A stretch of DNA of 64,000 nucleotides from a virus (Duplodnaviria > Caudoviricetes). Positions 30,957 through 53,705 of the stretch are shown piece after piece (the stretch's first letter is position 1; each line of letters begins with the position of its first letter). The translations under genes were made by a program, and so were the position numbers. The notes beneath the pieces are model-generated. The model worked only from the letters and a program-made list of their open reading frames with translations, made no database searches and had not been told where the DNA came from. Where the stretch lies: the IMG/VR virus record IMGVR_UViG_3300025316_000014, positions 2,090-66,089 of that record; one strand, given 5' to 3'.

Positions 30957-31241
30957 ATGGTCATGGCAATGGTAGCTGAGTTAACAAAATATACAGAGGC
31001 TAAGAAAGTGTATGCAGAAGTTGTTCAAGAGATTGAAAAACTTGATGCAGAAATTCTTCACTCACGGCAAGCAGATGTTAACGTGTCTTCTTCTCCAGTT
31101 GACCAGTCAAAACCAGGTTACCTTTACCGTGCAAAATCCTCAACGAAAACTGAGGCACTTGAAAAGAAAAAAGAGCAACTTATTCGGGACCGTCAGTCCG
31201 CTTGGGATACGATGATTGCTGCGAAAAAACTTCTCGGATAA
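30957..31241 (+). CDS. Conserved-ends helical ORF family, copy 1
   Basis: TEAKKVY...AWDTMIAAKKLLG. Confidence 0.65.
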   Translation: MVMAMVAELTKYTEAKKVYAEVVQEIEKLDAEILHSRQADVNVSSSPVDQSKPGYLYRAKSSTKTEALEKKKEQLIRDRQSAWDTMIAAKKLLG

Positions 31242-31254
31242 AGGACGAACTATT

Positions 31255-31332
31255 ATGACCATTGAACAATTCAAATCCGCATATGAACAAGCAAAAAAAG
31301 AGTGGAAAGCCGCGAAAGCTATGGTGAAATAA
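31255..31332 (+). CDS. Conserved-ends helical ORF family, copy 2 (25 aa minimal)
   Basis: MTIEQFKSAYEQAKKEWKAAKAMVK; SD AAGGA. Confidence 0.5.
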   Translation: MTIEQFKSAYEQAKKEWKAAKAMVK

Positions 31333-31333
31333 T

Positions 31334-31885
31334 ATGGCAGGCTATTCAGCACTTGTTCCACTTCCAGATAAGGGCGATATTAACTCGGGAGTCAGTCCGA
31401 TGTCTGCTGCATTTCTCATGCAGACATTCGGCAGTCCGGGAGCAAATCCTTCGGATAATTGCGCGCCTGTCACAAATCCAGTAATGAAGCAGAGAATTGT
31501 TACTGTTTCTGTTGGACCGTTTCGGGTAACAGGTGATCGGTTAGCGGTTGCCGATCTCAGAACGATCTTTGCAGATGTCGCGGCGAAGGACGCTAAATTG
31601 TATGCTTCTTTAGGATCGGCGGGCATGTTATGCTTCAGGCATACCCGTGGGTCGACAACAGAATTATCAAATCATTCATGGGGCGATGCGGTTGATTTAA
31701 CCATCAATGGCATTCTCACCCAACGGGGAGCAACACAAATTACCTCGGGTCTCCTTGCTTTGTATCCATATTTCCATGCGGTCGGCTGGTATTGGGGTGC
31801 AGGATTTTCAACGCCGGATGCCATGCACTTTGAAATGGGTTTGGATCGATTAAAATCTCTATATCAACTTGAGTTGAACGGGTGA
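31334..31885 (+). CDS. Endolysin, M15-family peptidase
   Basis: R...SNHSWGDAVDL...WG..F...DAMHFE. Confidence 0.85.
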   Translation: MAGYSALVPLPDKGDINSGVSPMSAAFLMQTFGSPGANPSDNCAPVTNPVMKQRIVTVSVGPFRVTGDRLAVADLRTIFADVAAKDAKLYASLGSAGMLCFRHTRGSTTELSNHSWGDAVDLTINGILTQRGATQITSGLLALYPYFHAVGWYWGAGFSTPDAMHFEMGLDRLKSLYQLELNG

Positions 31886-32304
31886 TGGATATGACGCCCT
31901 TTTATAATATTTTCCATCGGAATGTGAATGAAGAACATGCGGCAAATCTTGCTGGTAAAGGGTGGAATGATAAAATTATTTTTGTCTTGGCTGGAGCGTC
32001 AGCTAGTGGAGTGATGTTCTGGTTTTGTGTTTTGTTGTCAGCAATTCCTTTCGGAATGCCAAAATGGATGGCAGTTATCCTCTTCATCTCAAATACTCTT
32101 CAACTCTGTTATCTCCCTGTTATTCAAATTACTCAAAAGAATAATGGCGAGCATTCTGAACTTCGGGCAGCGGCAGATCATTTGAAACTTCTTGCTTTAT
32201 CGGAAAATCAAAATGAAATAAAAACGGCGCTAACTTCTATTAATGATAAGCTCACTGTATTAAATGATGACCTCATTTTGTTCAATGACAGGCAAAAAAA
32301 ATGA
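31882..32304 (+). CDS. DUF1003-like membrane protein (lysis module)
   Basis: Two TM helices, SNTLQL..LPVI...Q...ELRAAADH, C-terminal coiled coil. Confidence 0.55.
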   Translation: MMDMTPFYNIFHRNVNEEHAANLAGKGWNDKIIFVLAGASASGVMFWFCVLLSAIPFGMPKWMAVILFISNTLQLCYLPVIQITQKNNGEHSELRAAADHLKLLALSENQNEIKTALTSINDKLTVLNDDLILFNDRQKK

Positions 32305-32531
32305 CAGAATTTTTGCGATTGAAAGCGATATATGAACATGCTGTGGCGGAAGAGAAGAGAGTTCGAGAGGAAATTATTTTCAATAACAGGGCGATAGCCC
32401 ATGCAACAACAGCAGCGGAATTAGCCCAAGCTCGGGGGAACAAGATGCGAGCGGAGTTACTTCGTCCTATTGCAGAAGGTAGAACAATGACGGCATGGGA
32501 AAACATGCGAAAAGCTCATCGGGAGCTTTAA
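32301..32531 (+). CDS. Conserved-ends helical ORF family, copy 3 (divergent)
   Basis: MTEF..LKAIYEHA...AWENMRKAHREL. Confidence 0.55.
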   Translation: MTEFLRLKAIYEHAVAEEKRVREEIIFNNRAIAHATTAAELAQARGNKMRAELLRPIAEGRTMTAWENMRKAHREL

Positions 32532-32554
32532 CAGCAAAAAGGAGCATATAAATT

Positions 32555-32992
32555 ATGTCACAGAACATTATTGTCGTTGATCCGACGACAGGCCACGTCG
32601 ACCCGCATAGTATTGCTTGGCAGCATGAGGAAAATATTCTCGGATTATTTCATCCGATTATCACAATTGAAGATAAAGATATTGTCGCGGTTGAAGAGCG
32701 GGTTGATGCTTCTCCGTCAATTCATCCCATTGAATTGTTCGTTGGCGATGTGGCGGTTTTTGCTCATTATAAACAATGGGAAGATGTTGCAAAAGCTTCT
32801 GGGCAGATTATTATCGAAGGCGCGAAACTCGAAATTCCTGAAGTAGCGGCGGCAATCATTGAAGCGGTTGCCCTTATTGAGGTGATTAAGACGAAAAACA
32901 TTCCGGCGATTGAAACCGCGGTGGTGTCTCTTAGTGGGGAACTTTTCAAGCTTATCCCGGAGTTCGCTCTTATTATCACTAAAAAAGTTTAA
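32555..32992 (+). CDS. Hypothetical protein
   Basis: SD AAGGAG; 145 aa. Confidence 0.6.
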   Translation: MSQNIIVVDPTTGHVDPHSIAWQHEENILGLFHPIITIEDKDIVAVEERVDASPSIHPIELFVGDVAVFAHYKQWEDVAKASGQIIIEGAKLEIPEVAAAIIEAVALIEVIKTKNIPAIETAVVSLSGELFKLIPEFALIITKKV

Positions 32993-33061
32993 TAAGGAGC
33001 GTTTACTCTTCCTATGATTGGGTATAAGTAATATATATACCCAATCATAGGGAGCAACTTT

Positions 33062-33268
33062 ATGAACGATGCGATTAAAGGTTTTTTCAAAGGCGGGGAA
33101 GTGGTACTACTCTTCGCCGGCTTTTTATGTAAAGGATTAGCCTTTAATCCACCATTGCCATTTGCCTGGGGAGTTGCTGCAAAAGCCGCCGGGAGTATTT
33201 TATGGGTTGCTTTTGATGGGACGTTCGCTTATTTAATGGTCCCTCTTAATAAAACTATCAAAGAGTAA
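33062..33268 (+). CDS. Holin-like two-TM protein
   Basis: Two hydrophobic segments with charged termini; near the endolysin. Confidence 0.45.
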   Translation: MNDAIKGFFKGGEVVLLFAGFLCKGLAFNPPLPFAWGVAAKAAGSILWVAFDGTFAYLMVPLNKTIKE

Positions 33269-33271
33269 ATC

Positions 33272-33484
33272 ATGACTTATCAGGAAGCAAAAGATAAATA
33301 TGATTATGCAAAAGACGAGTATGCACGAGCAGTAGAAAATCTACAAAAAGTGCAACGTCTTTCTATACATACTGGTAAGACTGGGGAACTCGCAAGACTC
33401 CAAGGAATGGTGGCGGATTTACTTAAGAAAGCGACTGCCGCACGGCGTCAAATGGACGACCTGAGAATGACTGAAAACCTGTGA
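33272..33484 (+). CDS. Conserved-ends helical ORF family, copy 4
   Basis: MTYQEAKDKYDYAK...KATAARRQMDDL. Confidence 0.7.
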   Translation: MTYQEAKDKYDYAKDEYARAVENLQKVQRLSIHTGKTGELARLQGMVADLLKKATAARRQMDDLRMTENL

Positions 33485-33491
33485 GGGTATT

Positions 33492-33707
33492 ATGACAGAA
33501 TTTGAAGCTCGCAAAGCTTATATGACAGCAAAACATGAATATGATATTGCTCGAGCTGAATGGGTTCGTGCATCAAACGCTGGAATGAAATGGGGTGCAA
33601 AATCTATTGACGCATATAAAGCGGATATGGACAGCAAATTGAAAGTTGCTGTTGCCGCGAAAAAGGTTTTGGATAGCGTTGCTGAACCATATATTGAAAA
33701 AGATTGA
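33492..33707 (+). CDS. Conserved-ends helical ORF family, copy 5
   Basis: MTEFEARKAYMTAK...AVAAKKVLDSV. Confidence 0.7.
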   Translation: MTEFEARKAYMTAKHEYDIARAEWVRASNAGMKWGAKSIDAYKADMDSKLKVAVAAKKVLDSVAEPYIEKD

Positions 33708-33716
33708 ATTTCCAAC

Positions 33717-33892
33717 TATGCCTTTACTAGCCGGCTAAGGCCAAAGTGCGCATAACATCAAGTCTCCTATTGCCTAATTTTGTTCTCGTAACAGGACAAA
33801 GACAATGCCTGGAGCGCAACAGAGGAAACCTGATAGATAACCTGAAGTGACACCTACGTAGATAAAGAAGTGGTGCGGCAATCTAGAGAGAC
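33717..33892 (+). ncRNA. Candidate structured non-coding RNA
   Basis: Closing stem GTCTC-CTA-TTGCC/GGCAA-TAG-GAGAC with internal hairpins (see findings). Confidence 0.35.
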
Positions 33893-33918
33893 GGATAATA
33901 CATTTTAGGAGCGACAAA

Positions 33919-34164
33919 ATGCCACATGGATATACTGGAGCACAGCTTACCAGAGCGATGGGGATTACTGGCACACCGAAACAATTTGCTCGTGATGCTT
34001 ATAAAAAAGCTAAAGACGATTATGAAAATTTATTTCATTCTACCATGGCATCCACAATCGGGTTATCAACATCCGATTGTAAAAATTTACCGAATATAAA
34101 AACTGCCTGGCAGAAAGTCGTTGACGCAAAGAAAGTTCTTGACGCTATCAAGGAGCAACCATGA
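33919..34164 (+). CDS. Conserved-ends helical ORF family, copy 6
   Basis: ARDAYKKAK...AWQKVVDAKKVLDAIKE. Confidence 0.7.
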   Translation: MPHGYTGAQLTRAMGITGTPKQFARDAYKKAKDDYENLFHSTMASTIGLSTSDCKNLPNIKTAWQKVVDAKKVLDAIKEQP

Positions 34165-34334
34165 CAAAATCTGAAGCTGAGGTTGCATATAAAAAAGCAG
34201 TGCAAGATTGGAAAAATGCGAAGCTTGAAGTTGAGACAAGCGAAGGGGCAGACGTTCAGCAAACTGCGGCTATTAATAAAGCTTGGCAGAAAGTTCTTGA
34301 TGCTAAGAAAGTTTTGAATGCTATGAAGGAGTAG
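34161..34334 (+). CDS. Conserved-ends helical ORF family, copy 7 (57 aa, not in the ORF track)
   Basis: MTKSEAEVAYKKA...AWQKVLDAKKVLNAMKE; ATGA overlap. Confidence 0.7.
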   Translation: MTKSEAEVAYKKAVQDWKNAKLEVETSEGADVQQTAAINKAWQKVLDAKKVLNAMKE

Positions 34335-34337
34335 GCG

Positions 34338-34604
34338 ATGACGAAATCTGAAGCAAAAAGTATATATGACAATTTGAATAAACAGTGGTCCGATTATGAG
34401 TCATATGTCCAAGCAAAAAAAGATGTCGATTTTAATACAAAGCAAGTTGCGTTAGCTCGTCAGAGTGATCCAAATAAAGTAGCATATTGGCAATCAGAAC
34501 TGGCTGCGGCGACAGCAAAACTTCAGTCTAAAGGCACGCCGAAAAAAGTTACCTATGAGCAGGTTGTCGCGGCACGAAGAATCTTCCAAGGGATGCAAGA
34601 ATAA
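34338..34604 (+). CDS. Conserved-ends helical ORF family, copy 8
   Basis: MTKSEAKSIY...YEQVVAARRIFQGM. Confidence 0.7.
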   Translation: MTKSEAKSIYDNLNKQWSDYESYVQAKKDVDFNTKQVALARQSDPNKVAYWQSELAAATAKLQSKGTPKKVTYEQVVAARRIFQGMQE

Positions 34605-34606
34605 TT

Positions 34607-35167
34607 ATGACTGACGAAATCCCACAAGGAGAAGAACAAGAAATTGACCCTGAAGCGCCGTATGGCCGCAACAGAAATGGAACACCTTTACTCCGCCCTC
34701 CAGTGGATCGTTCTATTCAAAGAGAGCGCCGTGGATATGTCGCGGAGTATTGTCGTAGAGGAATTTATAATACTGCTGAACTGGACCGGTTATTAGATAC
34801 TGAACATGATATCAGAGTACCGGCGCTAACAATCCAAAAGGATGTTAATTTATATCTTCGGCGAGTGATAGAGGAACAGAATATCGGCCGTGCAGCATGG
34901 CAAGCCAGGTTGATTGATCGATTAGTCGCTGGACAGCAAGCTATTTTCGCTCGGATTCAAAGGGGGGATGATCGGGCAATTCATTCTGAAATTGCAATTC
35001 AACGGCGCATTTCTGAAATGCTTGGACTTGATGCAACACCTAATGACCGGACAGAAGATTTTGGCGCACAATTGAATGAATTAATCAATGCTCAAGATAT
35101 CGCGATGGGCAAAGTTCCTTCTCCTCCCTCTGGAGTGAATACGTCCTCAGAGGTCACTGAAATATAA
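34607..35167 (+). CDS. Terminase small subunit (probable)
   Basis: HTH-like N-terminus, RR..MLGLDA motif, upstream of TerL. Confidence 0.6.
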   Translation: MTDEIPQGEEQEIDPEAPYGRNRNGTPLLRPPVDRSIQRERRGYVAEYCRRGIYNTAELDRLLDTEHDIRVPALTIQKDVNLYLRRVIEEQNIGRAAWQARLIDRLVAGQQAIFARIQRGDDRAIHSEIAIQRRISEMLGLDATPNDRTEDFGAQLNELINAQDIAMGKVPSPPSGVNTSSEVTEI

Positions 35168-35178
35168 AGGAATAAATC

Positions 35179-35367
35179 ATGACGGAAGCTGAAGCGAGAA
35201 AGGTATGGACTGATGCGAAGTCGGCATACCAGATGGCAGTATCCACACATAGTGATGGGAAAGTTATTTCAAAAGCATGGAATGACATTATAGCAGCAAA
35301 GCGTGCCCTTGACGCGATTATCTCAAAAGCTACAACTAACCGCTTCCCCGGAGTGTTTGGGCAATAA
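35179..35367 (+). CDS. Conserved-ends helical ORF family, copy 9
   Basis: MTEAEARKVWTDAK...AWNDIIAAKRALDAI. Confidence 0.7.
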   Translation: MTEAEARKVWTDAKSAYQMAVSTHSDGKVISKAWNDIIAAKRALDAIISKATTNRFPGVFGQ

Positions 35368-35407
35368 CTACAACTAACTGCTTAAGAAAACTGTTAAGGA
35401 GTAAATC

Positions 35408-35581
35408 ATGACGAAAGCAGAAGTACAAAAAGTATATGATGCTGCGAAAGCGGAGTATTTAACTACAGGCAAAGCATAAACTGATATTGATGAAACCGTC
35501 CGCAAAGCACTTGATGCAGAAACAACTGCTGGCCGTCCTAGAATTTGTCCACCTAATTTAGCACAGAAAGCGGAGCGGTGA
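35408..35581 (+). pseudogene. Conserved-ends helical ORF family, copy 10 (TAA at 35477-35479)
   Basis: MTKAEVQKVYDAAKAEYLTTGKA*TDIDETVRKALDA; 5' end nearly identical to copy 11. Confidence 0.55.
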
Positions 35582-35624
35582 TGATGAAACCGTCCGCGAA
35601 GCACTGGGATGCAAAAGGTTAACC

Positions 35625-36935
35625 ATGGCGATTATCCTTTCGGATAAACAAAAAGAGGCAATGACAAATGCGGATCAACGATGGAATTTGTTTATTGGAG
35701 CGACTCGTTCCGGTAAATCGTATGTTCAGCAAATGCTTATTCCTCGTCGCGTGAAAGAAAACATTCCGGGTTTATATATTCTTATGGCGAAGACTCAAAG
35801 CAATGTTGAGTCAAATATTTTATCGCCAATGAGAGATATATTAGGCCCGGAATTTATTTCACGTATCCGCAATATTAATGGTGTGACAGTAGCGAAGATA
35901 TTCGGAAAATCCTTTAGTATATTAGGCGGGGATAATATTCGGGCAGTCGATAAAATTCGAGGCAAGACGATCGGTTATGCAGCCGTTGACGAAGGGCCGA
36001 CGCTTCCTCATCCTCTTATTCAACTTCTTAAGACCCGGTTCACTGACCCTAGAGCAAAAGCTGATATTACAGGAAATCCTGAAGGACCACGGCATACATT
36101 CAAACTTGATCTTATCGATCGCGGCACATTGCCGCCTGGACATAAGGATTACCTTCGGGGAGTATATCATTTATCCTTTGGCTTGCTTGACAATCCTTCA
36201 TTAACTGATGATATTCGGGAACAGTTATGTTCAGAACTTCGTGGGGTTTGGTATAAGCGATTAATTTTGGGGTTGTGGGCGGCGGCTGAAGACGCAATTT
36301 ATGATATGTTTGATCCCGATAAACATATTACCGAAATTGATCCACAAGAAAATCAAGTCTATCGTCGATATGTCGGTCTTGACTATGGAACAGGGGCGCC
36401 TTCCGCTTTCATAAAGTTAGCATTATTGCATACAGGGCAATGGATTGTGACACATGAATATTACTGGGATAGCCAAAAAGAAATGGCAGAAAAAACGGAT
36501 GCGCAATATGTCGCGGATCTTCATCGGTTTGTTGCAAATCCATTATCACCGTCTGTTATTGATCCAACGATTGCAAGTATTTATGCAGACCCATCAGCAA
36601 AATCATTTATTCTTGCTGCGAAACGGGAACGCCTTCCTATAACGCTTGCAAACAATTCTGTTGTCGATGGTATTCGTCATGTCGCATCATTATTCGGCGC
36701 CGATAAATTACTTATTCATAAGCGATGTGAACAACTTTTGAATGAACTACCCGGATATACTTGGGATGCGAAAGTGGCGGAACGAGGAGAAGACGCTCCG
36801 GTGAAAAAGGACGACCATGCGTGTGATGCTATGCGGTATGGAATTTGGTCTACCATTGCGATATCAAAATCATCTTCTCGTGGTGTCATTCCTCAAACAG
36901 CGCAAAGTCAATTTGCTCGCCTTCGTGGAATGTAA
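35625..36935 (+). CDS. terL: Terminase large subunit (PBSX-like)
   Basis: GATRSGKS, AVDEG, TGNP, GLDYG, DPSA, DDHACDAMRY. Confidence 0.93.
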   Translation: MAIILSDKQKEAMTNADQRWNLFIGATRSGKSYVQQMLIPRRVKENIPGLYILMAKTQSNVESNILSPMRDILGPEFISRIRNINGVTVAKIFGKSFSILGGDNIRAVDKIRGKTIGYAAVDEGPTLPHPLIQLLKTRFTDPRAKADITGNPEGPRHTFKLDLIDRGTLPPGHKDYLRGVYHLSFGLLDNPSLTDDIREQLCSELRGVWYKRLILGLWAAAEDAIYDMFDPDKHITEIDPQENQVYRRYVGLDYGTGAPSAFIKLALLHTGQWIVTHEYYWDSQKEMAEKTDAQYVADLHRFVANPLSPSVIDPTIASIYADPSAKSFILAAKRERLPITLANNSVVDGIRHVASLFGADKLLIHKRCEQLLNELPGYTWDAKVAERGEDAPVKKDDHACDAMRYGIWSTIAISKSSSRGVIPQTAQSQFARLRGM

Positions 36936-37025
36936 TTGTCTATATTAACGGTGATAATATAGGTTTGTATTTTATCAGGATATGGTATAATATACAGAAG
37001 TCCCTGAAATATAAAGGAGTAAATC

Positions 37026-37313
37026 ATGACGAAAGCAGAAGCTCAGAAAGCTTATGATGAAGCGAAAGCGGAACTTATTAGTGCGGAAAAAGGCTATGCA
37101 GAATTGCAAAAAGAATTACAGGCAGAGGTTGACGACTGGACAACTGAACTTCAAAATCTGAAGGGTTCTGGATCTGCCGGCAAAATTGCTCATGCTAAGG
37201 ATAAAATCCGTGAAGCGAAATCTGGGATGGGGCGATCCCATGATTTAGGTCTCACCATGGCACTGGGCAAAGCCACTGCAGCCAAGAAAGTACTTGATTC
37301 TATTAAAAGGTAA
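37026..37313 (+). CDS. Conserved-ends helical ORF family, copy 11
   Basis: MTKAEAQKAYDEAK...KATAAKKVLDSIKR; has its own promoter upstream. Confidence 0.75.
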   Translation: MTKAEAQKAYDEAKAELISAEKGYAELQKELQAEVDDWTTELQNLKGSGSAGKIAHAKDKIREAKSGMGRSHDLGLTMALGKATAAKKVLDSIKR

Positions 37314-37316
37314 CAA

Positions 37317-37757
37317 ATGGAAGCTCCATCATTAACTGATTCAATGACTCCATCAGAACAAACAAAATTTGCCGCATATTGCCAGGCGAATAATGGACTT
37401 GTTTCTGCTTCTTTTGACGCGGAAGTAAGCATTAAACAATTGACGAAAGATTTCAATTTGCTCAGTCTAAAATGGACTGCGATCGCGGCACTTTTTCAAG
37501 GAGTTGTCTGCGATATTCCTGAAACCGACCCACGGTGGAGTATTGAATATGTAAAAGTGCTTCGGTTATTAGCGAATGATCGTACTCGGAATTTATCTCT
37601 TGAACAGCTCGACGCTATTGACTCCATGTGCTATCATTGCAATAATCATAGACCAGGAGAATTTTTTGATTGTATGATTACAGAAGGCGAACGAACAACC
37701 GGTCGTTCGGCAGCAACATCAGTATTAGAATGCGAGAAGTTGGTGTGGAGGGAATAA
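37317..37757 (+). CDS. Hypothetical protein
   Basis: Coupled to copy 11; CYHC motif. Confidence 0.55.
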   Translation: MEAPSLTDSMTPSEQTKFAAYCQANNGLVSASFDAEVSIKQLTKDFNLLSLKWTAIAALFQGVVCDIPETDPRWSIEYVKVLRLLANDRTRNLSLEQLDAIDSMCYHCNNHRPGEFFDCMITEGERTTGRSAATSVLECEKLVWRE

Positions 37758-37758
37758 G

Positions 37759-42600: not shown

Positions 42601-45320
42601 TTGCTACAACTGTGAAGAACAGTCAACCTGATTATACAGCTGTTCAAATTTCTGGTCCGATTACTCATGCACAATTAGATGCCTTAGTTAATATATCTAA
42701 GGAAAGTGAATTTACTCTTGTTGAATATTATGAAACACCAGGAGCAAAAGTACAGGAATTTAATACAAAAACAATTGGTCGAATTCCTATTATCACGGCG
42801 ACGACCCCAGCAGAGACTGCCGCTTTTACTCCTGCTGGAGTATACCCGAAGTATGAAGGGAAATTCAAATCTCTTGCTGATGCTCAACAATACTGCCAGA
42901 AAAAATGGCCAGACAAAACTTTTGATTTTGGCAAGGGCCGATGGGAAATGCACATTGATACTGTTGGGCCGACTGTCGAAAGAATGGAGGAAATGTTCAA
43001 ACAGTACCCTGCGGCAGAACAGGAATTTTCTGGGATCATGCCGGATATAGACCCCTATGCGTTTGCTTCAGCGATAACGCAACCCGGTAAAGGGACGTTG
43101 CTGCGATTGTCCTCGGAATGGTATAAAGACCCACAAAAATTCCATGAAGAATTGGCCAGGTCTGTTGCTGTAGGTTTTCACCCGGAAGGGTGTGATACTT
43201 TTACAAGTATTTTTGACCATGAATTTGGCCATGTTATTGCGAAAGCGTATAACGATATTCCTATCCCTGGAGGAATTAAGCCATATGATCAACCGTTATT
43301 CGGTAATGAGGATGTTCAGGATATTAAGACTCTTTCAGAATATGCCGCATCAAATGCTGATGAAGCGTTTGCCGAAGCATTCTGCGCATTGAAAAATTCT
43401 CCTAAAGGTGTCGCATGTTTGACAGCGCATTATACTGAAAAGGTAAAAAAATGGTTAGCAGAACCATTACAACGACGAAAGAAAGTAGAAAGAACGGTAG
43501 ATATTGTATTGCCAGATGAAGTAATGCAAAAATCGATGCCTGCTCCTAAAGGTGTTACTCCGCTTATTCCAGGATCAATAACTAAAAAAGAAGCGGAAAA
43601 GCAAGATAAAAAGTTATACGAATTATTGCGGGCAGGGCCGGGTGGTGCAAATGATAAAGAGTGCAAAGCACACATTATGCGAACCCTTTCGCAAAAACTT
43701 ATTAAAAATTCTGCATGGCGGGAGTATGCCGGAATTGACGCAGAGAGTGAAGCTATAGAAATTCAATATAGGGAAGCAAAAAAGATTGCGGATATATCCC
43801 CCGTTGATTACCCTGAAGTTATCCAGGCGAGAGAGATAAAAAGAAAAGCTATATCAGAATTTGAATCTGCTCAAAAAGTGGCAGCTAAATTTAAGGAAAA
43901 ATTTGAATGGATGCGATCAGCAATGTATAAAGCAAAAACTGATGGAGCTCCTGAGTATGCCCAATTAGTTGAGGATACATTGGCAGCTAAAAAAGGGTGG
44001 GATGAAGCAATCGCTTATGAAGAAGAAGAAGGGTATAGATTGCGGACTGCTATTTCAGAAGCACAAAAAGCAGATGTAGACGCATATGAAGACGCAAGAA
44101 CTGCTCAATATGAGGCTAAAGAAAAAGCAGAAAAACTTCTTGCTAAAACCGCGACGGCTAAATCTGAAAAGGCTGTCTCAGATGGGGTGAAACAATGGGC
44201 AATAACAAGCGGCAAAGCTCCGCTGTCTATTGCGATTCAGCTTGCTACTCATGATGAATTCAATCTTGCTTCTTCGGCAGCATTCCCTGGTGACTTTCGG
44301 CCAGCAACTATTGTTACTGCAAAAGCTGAAGTAGAAAGAACTGATAAAGCCAGAAATGATGCTGTAACTGCTCCTTCTATGGGAGAAGAGGAATGGCAAC
44401 AAATTGATAGGAATGCAGGATTAGCTAAGCGCCATTTAGCTCAGTTAGAAATGTTAGCCGCTTCCGGGTATAAAGAAGCATTCATTGCTCATTCTAAAAT
44501 AAAAGCAAGGATTACGACTCTTGAAACAATGTTATTAGAACAGAGAATAACATCATCAACCCAAATTGAAGAATTAAATGATTTGCGGGATCAAGCACAA
44601 GAACTTGCTCAACGGGAAGTACAAACTTTTCATGCGATAAAAAATAATTTATCTCAGGATGATGTTACTAATGCGGTAAGTTTTATACAAGCTGAGGCTA
44701 TTTATAAAGAGAACGGGGAAACACTAAAAGCATTCGTTCGTGCTCAATATGACGAGACTCAGGCATGGTTTAAAGAGCATAAAATTAAGGAAGTTATTTT
44801 ATATCGCGGGATGGGGTTAGAAGGTAGTAGAGAAAAAAATGTTCCGCAGCAAGAAGATGTCCTCTTAAGACCATTGTCTTCATTCGCTCATAGTCTTAAG
44901 GTTGCAACAGATTTTCATGGCGATCAAGGGCAGGATATTGTTCTTGGCGTGCATGCCCCGGTTAGCCAAATTTTATCGAATACAAATACTGGTGCCGGGT
45001 GTCTAAATGAGGATGAAATGGTTGTACTTGGCGGGCATATTGCCGCCACAGTGGTTGCTCCTGGTTTAGTGACTTATAATACGATAGAAAACCTTGAAGA
45101 AGCATTTTATGGTAAAGACTTATTATCACTGGAAGGCTTAAGAAAAGACGCTAAACAGAAAAAAGAAATGCTTGCAGATCATGAATCTAAAATGACAGAG
45201 GATTCTACTATTAAAAGTGCCAATATTTTAACAACATTAAAGAAAATATACAGAGGTGCTCTTGAAAAATATATTAAGGCTGGAGGAGATGAACGAGATT
45301 TATATGACGAAAGTGACTGA
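39678..45320 (+). CDS. Giant MuF/minor-capsid polyvalent protein with three zincin domains and a C-terminal ADP-ribosyltransferase
   Basis: Three HEFGH...Y...N..EAFAE repeats; MAARTG, CYIC, HPNCLH (MuF); LYRG, LSSF, NEDE (R-S-E ART). Confidence 0.8.
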   Translation: MSIHFENQLQAIKYCEGKYPTVHFDFGGMSLEVLDQLIPQINKLAIEYPGVMNQMKLIGRGLHGECEGGYASINDAGNAIHLNEKYFSNAELFKQCLQEDAAEDFHPEGCNTFASVFSHEFGHAVETYMRTPDANLGEGSALAGAFADKMYGSSSLSHYSQTNPNEAFAEGFAAIHHAPPGAGCLKTRYIEQQQTLLNVVKKRDPLSGAETEKLANEMGLPNLYNKPVQVDQLNVVKNVEGTEEGLQPGKFATIKEAQAWMKQHYPKIICTGFSEAHVDCLNPTIEQFHILAQKYPKVAKSLQRISVEKMPADIYAQASGESALLLNPKYYGNPKLFNKVLTEDSNIGFGPKGCGTIAAILTHEFGHSVQEAYNLIPPESGNKEKFFANHPDISRISQYAMTNYREAFAESFVVLNTPTASDVARYTPYVTDLARWSENLQKKNAEKAAKAAQKAVLPEKEKRASEPSTNTENILPKPKPEVIKPASPPPVDPETQQLLDWYQRIEAQLTEQLTASLLATSPHEYALAQDRLRQVENEIGRLRGAADTWDEHVIRASFHQGQQYAADELLATGISSFEQQSFNTIPTELLKLLASEVAGKRDGMISNILRQQHDYLRTLASGELAEGFGLGKSAYAIGSAIRNGTINQIRNGRAIQDLADGIVQTTGVRYSDGSIHSLQAYGQMAARTGTMAAYAVGAQQNFIDMGVHVASVSKQGSLCYICRPLEGKCFALDEEGEKQGYPPLGKYRFPLHPNCLHSLVPEMFPDKKEDLLPPKAFLQGDKREMLRQFKESNNSDYKMSRRGFTSRDQVRTWRNANPDVASEDLRGPRYRYAGIEKRRNHAVEAMLQDPKLTYAAAMSRQTAQFMKSSEYIRLVPPVTPTEQKRRVRFGAMSLPDMPAMQNKYVQEMKKQLGSVDYIDYSGNEPTSHFMYPDGTVTKPLQDGHWDIASDISDNINESIGINLDGFLHKSGTIRIATTVKNSQPDYTAVQISGPITHAQLDALVNISKESEFTLVEYYETPGAKVQEFNTKTIGRIPIITATTPAETAAFTPAGVYPKYEGKFKSLADAQQYCQKKWPDKTFDFGKGRWEMHIDTVGPTVERMEEMFKQYPAAEQEFSGIMPDIDPYAFASAITQPGKGTLLRLSSEWYKDPQKFHEELARSVAVGFHPEGCDTFTSIFDHEFGHVIAKAYNDIPIPGGIKPYDQPLFGNEDVQDIKTLSEYAASNADEAFAEAFCALKNSPKGVACLTAHYTEKVKKWLAEPLQRRKKVERTVDIVLPDEVMQKSMPAPKGVTPLIPGSITKKEAEKQDKKLYELLRAGPGGANDKECKAHIMRTLSQKLIKNSAWREYAGIDAESEAIEIQYREAKKIADISPVDYPEVIQAREIKRKAISEFESAQKVAAKFKEKFEWMRSAMYKAKTDGAPEYAQLVEDTLAAKKGWDEAIAYEEEEGYRLRTAISEAQKADVDAYEDARTAQYEAKEKAEKLLAKTATAKSEKAVSDGVKQWAITSGKAPLSIAIQLATHDEFNLASSAAFPGDFRPATIVTAKAEVERTDKARNDAVTAPSMGEEEWQQIDRNAGLAKRHLAQLEMLAASGYKEAFIAHSKIKARITTLETMLLEQRITSSTQIEELNDLRDQAQELAQREVQTFHAIKNNLSQDDVTNAVSFIQAEAIYKENGETLKAFVRAQYDETQAWFKEHKIKEVILYRGMGLEGSREKNVPQQEDVLLRPLSSFAHSLKVATDFHGDQGQDIVLGVHAPVSQILSNTNTGAGCLNEDEMVVLGGHIAATVVAPGLVTYNTIENLEEAFYGKDLLSLEGLRKDAKQKKEMLADHESKMTEDSTIKSANILTTLKKIYRGALEKYIKAGGDERDLYDESD

Positions 45321-45797: not shown

Positions 45798-45798
45798 T

Positions 45799-46597: not shown

Positions 46598-47281
46598 ATG
46601 CCAACTACAGTTGAAATCGATGGAAAACAAGTAACTCTTTTTACGAATGAGGAGTTAAGTGCACAAACAGCCGCCGCCCGAACAGCAGCCATTGCAGAAC
46701 TCGATATTAATGCCAAAACGGCAGCCGCCCGTCGGGATGCAGAAGCAAAGTTAACAGCCTCTCAACGAGAAGCGGCTGCGAGGATTGCTGGCACTGAACA
46801 AGCCGCCGAAGCGAAAATGGCTGAACTGCAAGCCCAACTTGATGCCGCTCTGCAGGATAGGACGACTACAGTTGCTGAACTTGAAGCATTAAGATCTGAC
46901 CTTGAAGGAGCACGAACAGGACAAGATCTTGCGTTCGATCGGGCAGTCGATATGCAAATTGAAAGCGAACGCCGTATGTCAATGATTGAAAGTGGTGTTC
47001 GCCCGGCAAAAACAGCAGAAGTCGAGGCGTTGTTACGTGCAAAAGGAACAGATTTTAGCGATGATATTGATGTCTTAGTTGATATCGAATTGTTAAAAGA
47101 AGACGCTCCTGGTTTGTTCACAAAAGCCGTATCAAATAGTGACAGTTATATTCCATCGGGGACAGCTCATAATTCCCCACGAAGTGTGGGGTTACAATCC
47201 GTGCAAGATATTGAAGCTTTATCGCCACGAGAATACGCGAAATGGCATGAAGAAACGTACGGTAAAGGCAGAAATCGCTAA
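46598..47281 (+). CDS. Capsid scaffolding protein
   Basis: Ala-rich coiled coil, PGLF motif, LSPREYAKW, directly upstream of the MCP. Confidence 0.75.
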   Translation: MPTTVEIDGKQVTLFTNEELSAQTAAARTAAIAELDINAKTAAARRDAEAKLTASQREAAARIAGTEQAAEAKMAELQAQLDAALQDRTTTVAELEALRSDLEGARTGQDLAFDRAVDMQIESERRMSMIESGVRPAKTAEVEALLRAKGTDFSDDIDVLVDIELLKEDAPGLFTKAVSNSDSYIPSGTAHNSPRSVGLQSVQDIEALSPREYAKWHEETYGKGRNR

Positions 47282-47349
47282 TTAAATCTGACGTGCCATA
47301 GTGTGGTCGTCAGCCAATAAGAAAATAAATCGAAGGGGGAAGCCAAACT

Positions 47350-48534: not shown

Positions 48535-48636
48535 TCTTCCAAGGTAACGAATTCCATTTGTAAGATTTATTGTCCTCCTGGGTTATTTATTTAATTCAGG
48601 AGGGCAGATAATTGAAATTAAATAAAGGAGTCTATT

Positions 48637-49167
48637 ATGACACTTGCCAATATTAAAGAAACAATTGCCCGTGTGTTTTCTGTCCCGCCGGGTGGGTTTA
48701 TTATCGCAGAGGCGTTGACCACTTTGTTCGCCACGGTTGGTGGACATGATCATGATGGTATCAATTCGGCACTCGTTCCTGGTAGTGTACGAACTGCGAT
48801 TTTGAATTTGACTGAAGCGAATATAAACGCTGGTGGAATTGCGATTGCTACTCCCCCTGGTTTGCAGTTGACAGTCGTAGGATTTAAAGCTTATCCGGTC
48901 GGCATTTTTGCAACAGGAGCAGGTATTGTTCTTGCCGATACTGAAGCTACCCCGGTCCCTGTAGGGACAATTCTCACTGCGGCGTTGAATGATGGAGCAG
49001 CAACTCCAGTTGCGAAGAATGCTTCTGACACGAGCGCAAACGTGAATATTGGGGTTGGTTTCGGCATTGAATTACCGGTAGGCGTTAGCTTGACATATGG
49101 AGTGTCTGGCTCGCCATTCACCAGTGGAACTTCTTGCCGGGTTGTTGTGTTCTACACATTGCAATAA
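48637..49167 (+). CDS. Head decoration / minor capsid protein (putative)
   Basis: Position after the MCP; GHDHDG motif; beta-rich. Confidence 0.5.
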   Translation: MTLANIKETIARVFSVPPGGFIIAEALTTLFATVGGHDHDGINSALVPGSVRTAILNLTEANINAGGIAIATPPGLQLTVVGFKAYPVGIFATGAGIVLADTEATPVPVGTILTAALNDGAATPVAKNASDTSANVNIGVGFGIELPVGVSLTYGVSGSPFTSGTSCRVVVFYTLQ

Positions 49168-49177
49168 GAGGTTCTTG

Positions 49178-51034
49178 ATGGTTGTTGCTATTCTGATACC
49201 GGTTAAAGCATTCGCCGAACGGGCAGAAGCATTTTTTAATGCGCTCATTCGTTTAGAATATCCAAAAGAAAGTTTGCATATTATTTTCCTTGATGATTTT
49301 GCTGATACAGCAAGCAAGCGTGCTCTTGAATATTTTCAAACAGATGAGCGCATTAAAACATATGCTTCAATAGAAGTGATACCTGGAATTGATTTTTGGG
49401 GAGATAATACCACTTCCAGAGACGCAGCTTTATTCGGGGATAAAATAGCTTTTTATGGACATTTATCCCGTATCCGTCAACGATTGCTTGATAGAGCGAG
49501 AGAACTAAAAGTTGACGCCGCATTATGTATTGATAGTGATGTATTGATTGCTCCGCAATTATTGAATCATCTTATCGCCCAGCAAAAAGATATCGTCGGC
49601 AGCATTATTCCTGTTACTGAATCAAACGATAATGGTATACAAGAATTTATTTATAGTCGTCCTATTAATGCAATGAATCTTAATAATAATAGTGATAACG
49701 ACTACCACCATTGGACGCATTATTCTCCTAACTGTTGCACTCTTGTACATATGACAGGCGCAGTTTATTTGTTATCTAAACAAATATTAAATTCTAGTGT
49801 CTCATATCCAGAACTAGCTCATTATCAAGGAGAAGATTTAGGTTTTTGCGCCGCATTGCGAAAAGCAGGATTTACAATATGGCTTGATTCAACTCCTCTT
49901 TGTATTCACATTATGAGTCTTTCTCGGCTGCCTAAAGCAATAGCCGATTATCAAATGGCGTGGAGCAAAGAATCTATTAATGAATTTACTGAAAAAATAT
50001 CTACTTCAGTATTCGTATCTAATAAATCTATTCCTGCAACGTTTGTCTATCCTCCTACTATCCCATGGGGAACAATGTTCCAACGGCCGCAACAAATAAT
50101 GAAAGCTTTAGCTAAGCAAGGAGCAAGGTCAATATTTGTTGACACATCTCATAATGTTCATTCACCATTCGAAGAAGTTGAGGATAATCTTTTTGTTATT
50201 AATGATATTAGCCAAGCCACACAATTAATCTCCCGACCATTAATAGGGTGGGTTAGTTATCCTCCAACATATTCCTCTTTTACTGTTTTATCACCGGATA
50301 CAATGATTTTTGATGCGCTTGATATGCCTGAAGGAGAATTCGCTGGGTGGAAGCATGGATATGCTGCCGCACAGAATAACGCGAGCATAATTTTTTGTTC
50401 ATCACAGGCTCTTTATGATTATAATAAAGCAACTCATAATAATAAATGTGTATTATTATTAAACGGGGCTGATTATAAGCATTTCTCAACTCGAACTACG
50501 CTTGCTAATGACATGCCGAAAACAGGACGTAAAGTTTTAGGTTTTGTTGGAGCGCTTGCTTCTTGGCTTGATTGGGCATTACTTGAAGAATTGCCTAGTT
50601 TACTTCCTGAATACGAGATTGTTTATGTCGGTTCATGGTTTGGAAGCATTCATGGAACAAATAATCCGCAAGTGCATTTCCTTGGCCATCGTCCATATTC
50701 TGATTTGCCTAAATATATATCTGGGTTTGATGTTTCAATGGTGCCATTTAAAATAACCTCTATGACAAATGGTGTTAATCCAATTAAACTTTGGGAGTAT
50801 TTAGCGGTAGGCGTCCCTGTTGTTAGCACTCCTCTTCCTGAGGCTATCGCATTGAATAAAGTTGTTAGTATTGCATCATCCCCTCAAGAATTTGCAGATG
50901 CTATTCGCTCTTCTTCTTCACATTGCACTCCTGGGCAACGCCGACGAGTTGCTAAAAATAATAGTTGGGACACCCGTGCTATAACTGTTTTTGACACTTT
51001 ATATAATTCTGGTATTATTAAAAAGAGTACATAA
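49178..51034 (+). CDS. Bifunctional glycosyltransferase (GT-A family-2-like plus GT-B family-4-like)
   Basis: IDSDV and GEDLGFC; FQRPQQI, NGADYKHF, NPIKLWEYLAVGVPVVST. Confidence 0.85.
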   Translation: MVVAILIPVKAFAERAEAFFNALIRLEYPKESLHIIFLDDFADTASKRALEYFQTDERIKTYASIEVIPGIDFWGDNTTSRDAALFGDKIAFYGHLSRIRQRLLDRARELKVDAALCIDSDVLIAPQLLNHLIAQQKDIVGSIIPVTESNDNGIQEFIYSRPINAMNLNNNSDNDYHHWTHYSPNCCTLVHMTGAVYLLSKQILNSSVSYPELAHYQGEDLGFCAALRKAGFTIWLDSTPLCIHIMSLSRLPKAIADYQMAWSKESINEFTEKISTSVFVSNKSIPATFVYPPTIPWGTMFQRPQQIMKALAKQGARSIFVDTSHNVHSPFEEVEDNLFVINDISQATQLISRPLIGWVSYPPTYSSFTVLSPDTMIFDALDMPEGEFAGWKHGYAAAQNNASIIFCSSQALYDYNKATHNNKCVLLLNGADYKHFSTRTTLANDMPKTGRKVLGFVGALASWLDWALLEELPSLLPEYEIVYVGSWFGSIHGTNNPQVHFLGHRPYSDLPKYISGFDVSMVPFKITSMTNGVNPIKLWEYLAVGVPVVSTPLPEAIALNKVVSIASSPQEFADAIRSSSSHCTPGQRRRVAKNNSWDTRAITVFDTLYNSGIIKKST

Positions 51035-51702
51035 TGATATCAATAAATAAAGTACAGGGATTATTAAAATCAATAAGTAATAACGCATACTATAATGATG
51101 TATATAGTTTATGTGAGATATCGTATTGGGAGCATATTTATCAGTGGATGGCCGCGGATAATTATATAACCCCAGTTGAACAATGCCTTGATATCGGATG
51201 TGGCTATGGTACACTAGCTCTTTACGCCCATCTTTTATGGGGGGTGCATGTTTGTTGTACAGATTTTGTTGATTATTATTTTCAAAAAAGTTTACTTGAT
51301 TTATATAATATTGAATATGCTACTACGAATATTGAATTTGAAGTACCGCCATGGGAATATATATATGATGTTATTATTTTTACGGAAGTTCTTGAGCATC
51401 TGAATTTTAATCCGGTTTATACATTTAATCATATATGCAAAGTATTAAAACCGGGCGGATATTTATATTTAAGTACTCCGGATATTCAGTCGTGGAGAAT
51501 ATGCAATAAATATATATCATATCATAAAATGTTAAAGCCGTCTAATGATATTGTTTTACAGGATACTCATATGTATATTTATAGTGAAGCAGAAGTACGA
51601 GAGTTAGCTCACTTTATGAATTTGCGAGTTATTCATTTTGATCGTTCTTCTGGTATGAATGGGGCGCAACATTTGAATTTTGCCATGCAATACATGCCAT
51701 AA
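51034..51702 (+). CDS. Class I SAM-dependent methyltransferase
   Basis: LDIGCGYG, YDVIIFTEVLEHL, LKPGGYLYLSTP. Confidence 0.9.
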   Translation: MISINKVQGLLKSISNNAYYNDVYSLCEISYWEHIYQWMAADNYITPVEQCLDIGCGYGTLALYAHLLWGVHVCCTDFVDYYFQKSLLDLYNIEYATTNIEFEVPPWEYIYDVIIFTEVLEHLNFNPVYTFNHICKVLKPGGYLYLSTPDIQSWRICNKYISYHKMLKPSNDIVLQDTHMYIYSEAEVRELAHFMNLRVIHFDRSSGMNGAQHLNFAMQYMP

Positions 51703-51728
51703 ACTAATAAATAAGGGAGGGTGCTATA

Positions 51729-52313
51729 ATGAGTGGAACACAAATTGCTGATTATACAATAACCCCAACAGTCGGGGTTAACACATATGTTGACCCTGGA
51801 CAAGCATTAGCTTTTGCTAAAATGATATACCCTCAAATTCCAACGATCAATGCTTTATCAATAACATCCCCTGACGCAGCATGGAACGGAGCAGTTATTC
51901 GAGCGTGTATGAAAATCGAGGCACTTGACCCCAGGATGTGGCTTGGTTGGAAAACAAATATTAATTCGGAATTGCAATGGCCACGAATTGCAGTACCGGA
52001 TTTACGGATAAACGCATGGGGGTATAGTCCAGTTTATGGTTTTGGTTTCTTTTATGACGCTAGTTTAATGCCACAAACATTGCAACTTGCACAAACTCAT
52101 GAAGCAATATATTTGTATTTACTTGATAGCGATGCTGGATATATTACTACTGTAATGATGTCATTAAAGGGAATAACTGATATTAGCTTGCAAAAAAGTT
52201 CCATTAAAACTGCTCCAGTAGAATTATTCGGTGGATTATTCTGTAATCCATTCGCATGGACTTTACTTAAATATTTACGTCGTGTCGGGCCATCTTCAGT
52301 TAAGATGTGCTAA
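51729..52313 (+). CDS. Head-tail adaptor (DnaT-like family)
   Basis: NTYV...A, G.K......LQWPR, AQ..EA; position. Confidence 0.65.
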   Translation: MSGTQIADYTITPTVGVNTYVDPGQALAFAKMIYPQIPTINALSITSPDAAWNGAVIRACMKIEALDPRMWLGWKTNINSELQWPRIAVPDLRINAWGYSPVYGFGFFYDASLMPQTLQLAQTHEAIYLYLLDSDAGYITTVMMSLKGITDISLQKSSIKTAPVELFGGLFCNPFAWTLLKYLRRVGPSSVKMC

Positions 52314-52366
52314 TATATAGACGAATTTAGAGTTTAACTCAAGCTATATATGGGCATAAATATAAT

Positions 52367-52696
52367 ATGTTAGGCAGTCCATTCGATAGTTTTATGCCAC
52401 ATACTTGTACGATTGTAACTTTAGGTGATCCAAATCCTGGTAATGACGGAGAGACACGGATCAATCAAGTGACAACAACAAGTTCATGTCATTTTACTGC
52501 CGAAAATAAATTACAATTATTGAAGGATGGTACTTGGGCACAGCTACAAGGAACAATGCTTTTACCAGTGAATGTTCCAATACCAGACCCGACAAGTTTT
52601 GTGATAATTAATGGGATTAAATATCGACCTAAATTAGTTAGCCAGACAACCTTCCCGTGGGGAGGGATTGCTGAGCAAGTAATAGGTTTGGAGTAA
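52367..52696 (+). CDS. Head closure protein (putative)
   Basis: Size, beta-rich composition, INGIKY, position. Confidence 0.55.
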   Translation: MLGSPFDSFMPHTCTIVTLGDPNPGNDGETRINQVTTTSSCHFTAENKLQLLKDGTWAQLQGTMLLPVNVPIPDPTSFVIINGIKYRPKLVSQTTFPWGGIAEQVIGLE

Positions 52697-52699
52697 CTC

Positions 52700-52996
52700 A
52701 TGACGAAACAAGAAGCGCAGAAAGCCTACGGCGAAGCGAAGGCCAAATTACAAGCAGTCGTTATTGCTATTAGTGATCAGCAAAATAAGCTTATTACATT
52801 GCAGTTTAGTGAGGTTAGTGCTAGTGGAACAGGCGATCATGGAGGCGGACGAGCATTTACTTCTAAAGCTGAGAGTGAAAGAAAGCAAAATATTTCAAAA
52901 GTGCAAAACGAACTTAAGTCGCTTGACGCTGCGAAAGAAAAGGCACTGAATGCTGCCGCGGCAGCCAAGAAAGTTCTAGATTCAATTAAAGGGTAA
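52700..52996 (+). CDS. Conserved-ends helical ORF family, copy 12
   Basis: MTKQEAQKAYGEAK...AAAAKKVLDSIKG. Confidence 0.75.
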   Translation: MTKQEAQKAYGEAKAKLQAVVIAISDQQNKLITLQFSEVSASGTGDHGGGRAFTSKAESERKQNISKVQNELKSLDAAKEKALNAAAAAKKVLDSIKG

Positions 52997-52999
52997 CAA

Positions 53000-53404
53000 A
53001 TGGTTCAGCATAGTGTTATACCTCCGAATATGGGTGAAATTCGAGCGCAATTAAATGCGGCTTTTGCAGCTGTCCCTGTTGAAGGTAAAAAAGCGATGGG
53101 AGCAATTCTTTCACCTGCAATTAAATGGACAACAGAACGCACACCTTTTGGCGATACTGGTAATCTAAAATCAAGTATTACTGAAGCGTCGAAGGTGCAT
53201 CCCGATGGGTTAGGTTTTACACTTCGGACAAGCGGAATTGAATATGCAGCAGCGCAAGAATCTAATCTTGATTATCAACATATTAATCAAGAACCTAGTG
53301 GTGAACGTGGTCCACTTTATATTTATCGCGGTATTAGGTGGGCAGCAGCGCACGCCTACGAGCACCTTGCTGCGATGCACAGACGAGTTTGGGGAGGACA
53401 TTAA
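53000..53404 (+). CDS. HK97 gp10-like neck / tail completion protein
   Basis: TP..DTGNLKSS and EYAAAQE motifs. Confidence 0.65.
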   Translation: MVQHSVIPPNMGEIRAQLNAAFAAVPVEGKKAMGAILSPAIKWTTERTPFGDTGNLKSSITEASKVHPDGLGFTLRTSGIEYAAAQESNLDYQHINQEPSGERGPLYIYRGIRWAAAHAYEHLAAMHRRVWGGH

Positions 53405-53405
53405 C

Positions 53406-53702
53406 ATGACGAAACAAGAAGCGCAGAAAGCCTACGGCGAAGCGAAGGCCAAATTACAAGCAGTCGTTATTGCTATTAGTGATCAGCAAAATAAGCTTAT
53501 TACATTGCAGTTTAGTGAGGTTAGTGCTAGTGGAACAGGCGATCATGGAGGCGGACGAGCATTTACTTCTAAAGCTGAGAGTGAAAGAAAGCAAAATATT
53601 TCAAAAGTGCAAAACGAACTTAAGTCGCTTGACGCTGCGAAAGAAAAGGCACTGAATGCTGCCGCGGCAGCCAAGAAAGTTCTAGATTCAATCAAGGATT
53701 AG
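53406..53702 (+). CDS. Conserved-ends helical ORF family, copy 13 (duplicate of copy 12)
   Basis: 288 bp identical to 52699-52986; SD GGAGGA. Confidence 0.75.
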   Translation: MTKQEAQKAYGEAKAKLQAVVIAISDQQNKLITLQFSEVSASGTGDHGGGRAFTSKAESERKQNISKVQNELKSLDAAKEKALNAAAAAKKVLDSIKD

Positions 53703-53705
53703 CAT

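Follow-up and report, generated by a model that had tools for sequence, protein, structure and literature searches.

Conserved ends and variable middles in a lineage-restricted family of predicted helical-hairpin proteins encoded at gene junctions in the structural arm of a freshwater phage

We describe a family of small genes in an uncultivated, siphovirus-like freshwater phage, represented by IMG/VR virus record IMGVR_UViG_3300025316_000014. The record is linear, 66,089 bp in length and has an estimated CheckV completeness of ~70%. The window, by which we mean the whole 64,000-nucleotide stretch analysed here, corresponds to bases 2090-66089 of the record, and positions are given in window coordinates. 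The family consists of 13 loci, amounting to ~3 kb or roughly 4.5% of the record. All are on the plus strand, within the chain of lysis, packaging, head and neck genes, and are dispersed over 23 kb at gene junctions. Intact open reading frames (ORFs), of 57-98 amino acids, are found at 11 of the 13 loci. The family was brought to light by an original prediction, made from the sequence alone, which listed 13 plus-strand loci. We used a family profile, built from 12 copies, to scan the six frames of the whole record. The scan returned the same 13 loci, at the same coordinates and all on the plus strand, and 0 elsewhere. Some entries were corrected: the locus at 31255 is a stub, that at 33919 is extended and that at 30957 probably has a different start.

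Copy 1 (30957-31241; 94 residues) is the first gene of the plus-strand arm and has a divergent C-terminal end (AWDTMIAAKKLLG). It probably starts at the second ATG, at 30963; the gene caller gave a protein of 92 residues (P0002). Copy 2 (31255-31332) is the stub, with 25 residues and the N-terminal motif only, and its stop is 1 nucleotide before the endolysin start. The start of copy 3 (32301-32531; 76 residues) overlaps the stop of a holin-like gene (ATGA). In copies 1 and 3 the C-terminal end is more divergent, with the form AWxxMxxA[KH][KR]xL. Copy 4 (33272-33484; 70 residues) has a 5′ unit (GAGTAAATCATGAC) that overlaps the stop of a gene for a 68-residue membrane protein. Copy 5 (33492-33707; 71 residues) continues for 6 residues past the C-terminal motif. 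In copy 6 (33919-34164; 81 residues) an 18-residue extension precedes the N-terminal motif. Copy 7 (34161-34334), at 57 residues, is the minimal member, and is followed by copy 8 (34338-34604; 88 residues). Copy 9 (35179-35367; 62 residues plus a tail) comes after a gene called TerS. Copy 10 (35408-35624) had been listed as broken, and is a pseudogene: an in-frame TAA occurs after 23 codons and the C-terminal remnant, in another frame, abuts the TerL start. Copy 11 (37026-37313; 95 residues) has TerL on one side and a 146-residue gene plus the portal gene on the other. Copy 12 (52700-52996; 98 residues) is upstream of a 134-residue neck-region gene (53000-53404), which has no relative in PDB, and copy 13 (53406-53702; 98 residues) follows. 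The genes downstream of copies 11 and 12 are not related to each other. As to the names of the neighbours, endolysin, TerL and, weakly, portal are supported by family matches, as are the major capsid protein, Ad1 adaptor and major tail protein further along the arm. The TerS gene (34607) is without any family match and owes its label to position alone; we refer to it below as the TerS-position gene. The holin-like gene (31882) is so called for two hydrophobic segments only.

Two local features were observed inside copies. Within copy 10, near-identical stretches of ~30 nucleotides (GATGAAACCGTCCGC.AAGCACT...) at 35488-35520 and 35581-35613, 93 nucleotides apart, suggest a small internal duplication in the pseudogene. 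In copy 11, contigs from three sequencing runs (two studies) match only the 38 nucleotides at 37088-37125 and have >250 unrelated letters on either side. They probably derive from another organism that shares a short stretch at the 80% threshold.

The copies are alike at both ends. The N-terminal consensus is MTKxEAxKAYxxAKxx[YW] and the C-terminal consensus is [AW]xxVxxAKKVLDxIK. Identities were averaged over the 91 pairs formed by 14 sequences, 10 of them encoded in the window and 4 not. For the first 17 residues mean pairwise identity was 0.46, compared with 0.19 after shuffling; for the last ~15 residues the values were 0.40 and 0.18. Conversely, the middles gave 0.27 against 0.23 for shuffled sequences, which is near chance, and their description as unrelated holds for the paralogues. 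The pattern of conserved ends and a variable middle is a quantitative fact. We also scored copies with leave-one-out hidden Markov models (HMMs), each against 1000 composition-preserving shuffles. Copy 13 was omitted as a duplicate of copy 12, and copy 10 because it is broken. All 11 copies scored 15.5-38.3 bits, the shuffle maxima were 8.2-12.9 bits and in none of the 11 tests did any of the 1000 shuffles reach the score of the copy itself. Even the divergent copy 1 (23.3 bits against a shuffle maximum of 10.9), the stub (15.5 against 10.5) and copy 3, the weakest intact member (15.9 against 11.7), were well separated.

Might coiled-coil ORFs rich in Ala and Lys simply be alike by chance, or might overlapping ORF calls have created the similarity? 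The composition is indeed biased (Ala 11-20%), and the profile also caught two repetitive or coiled-coil proteins, P0012 and P0015. However, the hhalign probability for P0015 is just 21%, the matches fall on the plus strand only, on non-overlapping ORFs preceded by a Shine-Dalgarno (SD) sequence, and the same two ends recur in proteins from outside the record. Chance is already refuted by the leave-one-out test, in which every copy outscored all of its shuffles, and we give it practically no weight.

Relatives outside the record are few. A profile search of 1.84 billion representative proteins produced 16 matches at E ≤ 0.001. These were nine window proteins, five outside members (P0004, P0009, P0010, P0011 and P0016) and two repeat proteins. 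A word-indexed search of 5.8 billion clusters gave an agreeing result. P0010 and P0011 have the same two ends with new middles, and P0016 is similar to the 57-residue copy. No fused form appeared in the profile search of representative proteins, which was unrestricted in length. The Pfam cut-off was reached by 0 of 10 members (the best match, to DUF1090, scored 20.8 bits against a cut-off of 24.4) and by 0 of 4 outside members. No match in PHROGs was significant (best E 0.025). Fold searches gave 0 matches at E ≤ 0.001 in PDB or BFVD; generic hairpins were returned, namely efflux adaptor hairpins, SipB, ING4, ROP and tape-measure segments. A search of the ESM Atlas reached a best feature score of 0.79 and, for structure, again matched efflux-adaptor hairpins. 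One candidate relative was rejected. The N-terminal ~65-residue units of P0015 (1241 residues) resemble the family helix-loop-helix (E 2e-6), but the hhalign probability is low, as given above. Its Pfam matches are to generic coiled coils only and the likeness is probably compositional.

We also looked for the family at related loci. Other TerL relatives are at most 34% identical, and the single identical locus (L081) is the same phage. Across 160 fetched TerL loci (1.46 Mb) the family HMM matched L081 only, with 0 of the 159 others at E < 0.1. Searches of viral, metagenome and genome contigs confirmed no relative; confirmation was by tblastn against one member, which could miss copies sharing only the ends. 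No described equivalent was found in the open-access papers searched. The original prediction had not recognised the family as a described system. It is a previously undescribed, lineage-restricted family, real and rare.

The fold was modelled for a long and a short member using AlphaFold2. In the model of the 95-residue copy 11, helices span residues 3-46 and 51-94 (predicted local distance difference test, pLDDT, 88.2; predicted template modelling score, pTM, 0.58). In that of the 57-residue copy 7, they span residues 3-26 and 32-56 (pLDDT 87.4; pTM 0.69). In a crude helix-propensity scan, 10 of 14 members had their lowest window at 0.44-0.57 of the core length. The loops are rich in Gly, Ser and Asp (e.g. 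GSGSAG, GTGDHGGG, SEGAD and HSDGK). An antiparallel helical hairpin had been proposed, and the models strongly support a symmetric two-helix hairpin with a central turn in both members. Given the central turn, the N- and C-terminal motifs would lie side by side at the open end, or base, of the hairpin. The middle had been pictured as a swappable insert displayed by a scaffold. The models do not bear this out: in them, the variable middle is the two arms together with the turn or tip, which grow and shrink together. Each arm varies from about 20 to about 45 residues. The symmetric lengthening of the arms, with the turn kept central, argues for selection on the folded product. None of 10 members has a hydrophobic segment and the proteins are predicted to be soluble. 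They are mildly basic in 12 of 12 copies, with an isoelectric point of 7.9-9.8 and a net charge of +0.5 to +4.6. Together, these two properties rule out membrane proteins and acidic DNA mimics; anti-restriction proteins of the latter kind (Ocr/ArdA type) are strongly acidic.

Conservation at the ends extends to the DNA, as had been claimed. A 66-nucleotide 5′ unit is found in 7 copies, a 62-nucleotide 3′ unit in 3 copies, and a 300-nucleotide repeat, 98% identical, at 52699 and 53405. As an example, the 5′ unit at 35148-35195 comprises ~30 upstream nucleotides (CAGAGGTCACTGAAATATAAAGGAATAAATC) and the first codons; it is common to 36995-37042 and, in part, to 33241-33288. The family's own SD is included and, in several copies, so is the preceding gene's stop (GGAGTAAATCATGAC). 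The 5′ unit is family-specific and is not present at other starts in the arm. The 3′ unit at 37259-37320 runs from the last codons through the stop and CAA to the ATG of the following gene; it is common to 52942-53003 (81%) and 53648-53709 (69%).

We compared synonymous and non-synonymous differences over all pairs of copies. The proportion of synonymous differences (pS) is near saturation, at 0.70 for the N-terminal end and 0.80 for the C-terminal end. The proportion of non-synonymous differences (pN) is lower (0.46 and 0.41, respectively). Invariant residues are specified by different codons, such as ACA/ACC/ACG/ACT, GCA/GCC/GCG/GCT and CTT/TTG/CTA. Near-saturated synonymous sites and varied codons indicate that most copies are old paralogues, with ends held by selection on the peptide. 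Judged from these substitution patterns, the ends are kept by protein-level selection and not by ongoing homogenisation.

Recombination through the conserved ends had been proposed as the means by which the family spread and diversified, and several comparisons point the same way. Copies 12 and 13 share a 288-nucleotide tract, 100% identical, which runs from 1 nucleotide before the ATG to codon 95, 3 codons before the stop. Upstream of this tract the DNA is unrelated and downstream it has diverged. Limits that match the ORF so exactly are expected of a conversion resolved in the shared ends, and not of a segmental duplication. Other pairs are mosaic. Thus, the ends of copies 11 and 12 are 87% identical in terminal 30-nucleotide windows, and 76% identical over 45-51 nucleotides, whereas their middles are 37-60% identical and align no better than random DNA. 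Between copies 6 and 7, the C-terminal end is 80% identical and the N-terminal end 39%. The outside orthologue of copy 8, P0004, has a middle 75% identical to that of copy 8 but a C-terminal end only 40% identical, and this end matches other paralogues better. The similarity of copies 9 and 11 extends ~30 nucleotides upstream, into the last codons of the TerS-position gene in one case and into intergenic DNA after TerL in the other.

A diverged relative of the phage is present in one sequencing run labelled marine (X7). Its contigs differ from the window at 16 positions in 303 nucleotides of the TerS-position gene and at 8 in 540 of TerL (~95-98% identity). They part from the window 17 nucleotides into copy 9 and immediately upstream of TerL. 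Translated in the frame of the window's stop, the 30 letters that precede TerL there give what reads as an intact C-terminal end of the family (...AAAEKNLDNAKG, then stop). No joints, such as a deletion between the repeats of copies 12 and 13, were seen in the contigs of the sequencing runs, which are short and of low depth. Taken together, the ORF-bounded tract, the mosaic pairs and the shared upstream DNA suggest that the family probably spread and diversified by recombination through its conserved ends. Against this stands the age of most ends, evident from the pS values. The phage encodes candidate recombination proteins, an AAA_24 protein and a PD-(D/E)XK nuclease, which may take part in recombination of the copies.

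The copies are closely fitted to their neighbours. Gaps to neighbouring genes are -4 to +13 nucleotides at most junctions, and -4 to +3 nucleotides at 9 of the 18 listed. The codons for IK[E/G/R/D] that end the gene spell AAGG(A/G), and they supply the SD of the next gene in 6 of 9 close junctions. Sites resembling promoters occur at shuffle level (23 compared with 24.3 +/- 4.4, and 10 with 11.1 +/- 3.0), as do sites resembling terminators (9 compared with 8.5 +/- 2.9, and 5 with 3.1 +/- 1.6), and none recurs at the copies. That the genes sit in translationally coupled chains is strongly supported. The same spacing and SD overlap would suit relay ORFs whose role is to hand ribosomes over to the next gene and fix its expression ratio, with an irrelevant peptide, and the A-rich conserved first codons look like a good initiation context. 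However, conservation reaches far past the start and the SD (Y10, A13, K14, [YW]17 and W/V/AKKVLD), and does so with different codons; the predicted fold is consistent across lengths, and a relay does not need 57-98 codons. We regard such a relay as distinctly improbable.

Anti-defence or decoy proteins, virion accessories and a mobile coding cassette had been put forward as possible roles. The explanation that we favour, and place a little on the probable side, is of a lineage-restricted family of soluble hairpins, with ends that are both selected and recombining, serving as an accessory of the virion or its assembly. Helix 1 would begin with the conserved N-terminal segment and helix 2 finish with the C-terminal one, the two pairing to close the base of the hairpin. 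The genes would be old paralogues, duplicated and partly overwritten by recombination with both of its limits in the conserved termini. They would be read as links of translationally coupled chains, with the last codons doubling as the next gene's SD. The conserved base may be a common docking surface for one partner made concurrently, a virion or assembly component, and the arms may diversify reach or tip. A virion-associated or assembly-associated accessory thus seems the most likely role. Several points weigh against this explanation. The argument for function is drawn from gene position and fold alone, and both AlphaFold2 models were built on shallow family alignments, of 12 and 14 rows. 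Recombination is read from patterns within one genome, and X7 contributes two contigs from a single run, both short and of low depth. The end conservation has in part other causes, namely the SD and start context of the copies themselves at the 5′ side and the next gene's SD at the 3′ side. Moreover, the ends could be conserved just to close the hairpin, with no docking role, and the decay of 2 of the 13 copies means that individual copies are dispensable.

The role could instead be that of a packaged and injected arsenal, in which the ends are a head-targeting or packaging signal and the arms are diversified anti-defence effectors. The precedent is the internal proteins of phage T4 (IPI, IPII, IPIII and relatives). 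These are small, diverse, Lys-rich proteins made with the head genes and bearing a short conserved terminal segment, and are described as very diverse defence proteins in which only the targeting sequence is conserved (PMC3012670). The family resembles them in having a conserved terminal segment, a diverse remainder and head-gene timing: its genes lie in the structural arm, so the proteins would be made as heads assemble, and they are small, Lys-rich, mildly basic and present as many diversified copies with a conserved terminal tag. Turnover in the X7 relative is also faster than that of flanking genes. In T4, however, the N-terminus alone is conserved and is removed by the prohead protease, and IPI is a compact alpha/beta protein. 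The family has both ends conserved, a predicted two-helix hairpin and dispersal at junctions, and its members gave no PHROG sequence match to T4 internal proteins. The variable part is a coiled-coil arm whose sequence is at chance level, so that specific effector folds could hardly be accommodated, and no prohead protease or cleavage motif was identified in the phage. A weak N-terminal likeness to AcrIIA2 is a lead only: the match covers profile positions 1-36 (E 0.031 in a 177,635-sequence database), is not significant and has no fold counterpart, and AcrIIA2 is not a hairpin. We judge the arsenal unlikely, if the strongest of the alternatives. A selfish coding cassette, which copies itself into junctions by short homology and is kept since coupling is preserved, would bring the phage no benefit. 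Such a cassette fits copies placed exactly at gene junctions with their own SD and start plus the next gene's SD, duplicated DNA that reaches ~30 nucleotides upstream into unrelated genes, one identical tract bounded by the ORF, and the two decayed copies. Yet the unit encodes no transposase, nuclease or integrase and has no bracketing inverted repeats (of 11 pairs in 30800-37500 none consistently flanks a copy, and 52500-53900 contains 0 pairs). The protein-level conservation of the ends at saturated synonymous sites, and a turn that stays central from 57 to 98 residues, point to selection for a folded product. We consider this cassette improbable. Similarly doubtful is a self-renewing library of virion-delivered proteins, in which the ends would be both a docking or packaging handle and the DNA homologies for arm swapping. 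On that reading, phage recombination proteins would copy, move and overwrite arms between junctions and co-infecting relatives, combining delivery of the T4 internal protein type with a coding counterpart of the cassette shuffling considered next.

We compared the family with other known systems. The PeSL (promoter early stem-loop) cassettes of T4-type phages are short conserved intergenic repeats, for which a part in modular shuffling through recombination has been proposed (PMC2839356). A PeSL is a non-coding unit of promoter and terminator in an early hyperplastic region, whereas the units here are the ends of coding genes in a structural arm. No unit was found to combine a sigma-70-like promoter with a stem-loop terminator, such sites being at shuffle level. 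None of the loops contains WxG and no Pfam match to WXG100 was found at E ≤ 1. Proteins of the WXG100/Esx family are helix-turn-helix hairpins of ~100 residues, often encoded as neighbouring paralogues. EsxB of B. anthracis was among the weak fold matches (E 0.67, not significant) but, unlike the case for Esx proteins, there is no secretion system in the gene context. Phage morons are extra genes between conserved late genes, typically single and unrelated, each with its own promoter and terminator. Here, by contrast, there are 13 related copies without promoter or terminator signals of their own, and they are translationally coupled. Mycobacteriophage mobile elements (MPMEs), which occur at different sites in otherwise similar genomes, are ~440 bp long and have terminal inverted repeats as well as an ORF for a putative transposase. 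The family likewise consists of small units at several places in a genome, but no inverted-repeat pair brackets a copy and the products are helical hairpins of 57-98 residues; the same holds against miniature inverted-repeat transposable elements and insertion sequences. NblA is a small helical-hairpin protein that is also carried by freshwater cyanophages; its profile was not among the Pfam matches at E ≤ 1 for 10 members. The family belongs to none of the systems compared, and resembles none in a demonstrated sense.

About one in seven genes of the structural arm belongs to this one undescribed family, and 15 billion proteins contain almost no other members. Should the base dock to a virion or assembly component, the hairpin would be a compact natural scaffold whose arms are free to vary in length, and the family an example of a phage expanding and reshuffling a gene set in an operon usually deemed rigid. 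If the genes are selfish or relay ORFs, they would illustrate how a coupled late operon can be colonised by additional ORFs and yet stay undisrupted. Whichever reading applies, the tight lineage restriction limits generality. The family is a narrowly distributed case of a known theme, that of multigene and hyperplastic ORFan sets in phages, with a clean pattern that is unusual for a structural operon.

The phage has no DNA match to sequenced phages in the phage collection searched; its best TerL match is 38% identical and its best capsid match 31%. Its DNA is present in freshwater and lake metagenomes of several studies, with no RNA run among the sequencing runs listed as containing it, and a 68,294-bp metagenome contig contains a stretch identical to the phage over 13.3 kb. 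The record has no tRNAs and so gives no host clue from this source. The cyanobacterial HIP1 octamer is not enriched (3 found, 0.92 expected; 9 of 100 shuffles reach 3), and we therefore make no host call. An Rfam search of the record gave 0 matches.

The minus-strand arm (about 2.5-30 kb) encodes replication and recombination proteins. Besides the AAA_24 protein and the PD-(D/E)XK nuclease, these include a DnaE-type DNA polymerase III (Pol III) alpha subunit, a primase-MCM-type helicase and an SNF2 helicase. The phage's own Pol III alpha, with PHP, NTPase and finger domains, and an Amidoligase_2 protein are encoded on the minus strand at 9436-12420 and 24890-26023. A 0.9-kb intergenic region separates this arm from the divergent plus-strand arm. 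Three head-to-tail 20-nucleotide repeats (TTGGTTTCAAAAAGGGA-like; 30221-30297) lie in that region, with a fourth copy 417 nucleotides on (30678-30714), and could be operator, iteron or promoter elements.

The plus-strand arm encodes an M15_4 endolysin, TerL, a protein with a weak SPP1-type portal match, an 1880-residue minor-head/zinc-protease protein, the major capsid protein (phrog_283), an Ad1 adaptor, a TIG-domain protein, a major tail protein and a tape-measure-like protein. In the 69-nucleotide gap before the gene at 33062 there is a 19-nucleotide inverted repeat (33008-33054), 95% complementary with a 9-nucleotide loop, and its 3′ arm overlies the ribosome-binding site of that gene. The 1880-residue protein (39678-45320) unites zinc-finger protease and minor-head (MuF-like) regions, and a repeated CATGAATTTGG.CAT stretch at 40764 and 43218 in its gene suggests two HExxH metalloprotease motifs. 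Genes for a glycosyltransferase-like protein (645 residues) and a methyltransferase-like protein (222 residues) are found at 49097-51702, flanked by the capsid and head-tail adaptor genes, which is an unusual location for such enzymes.

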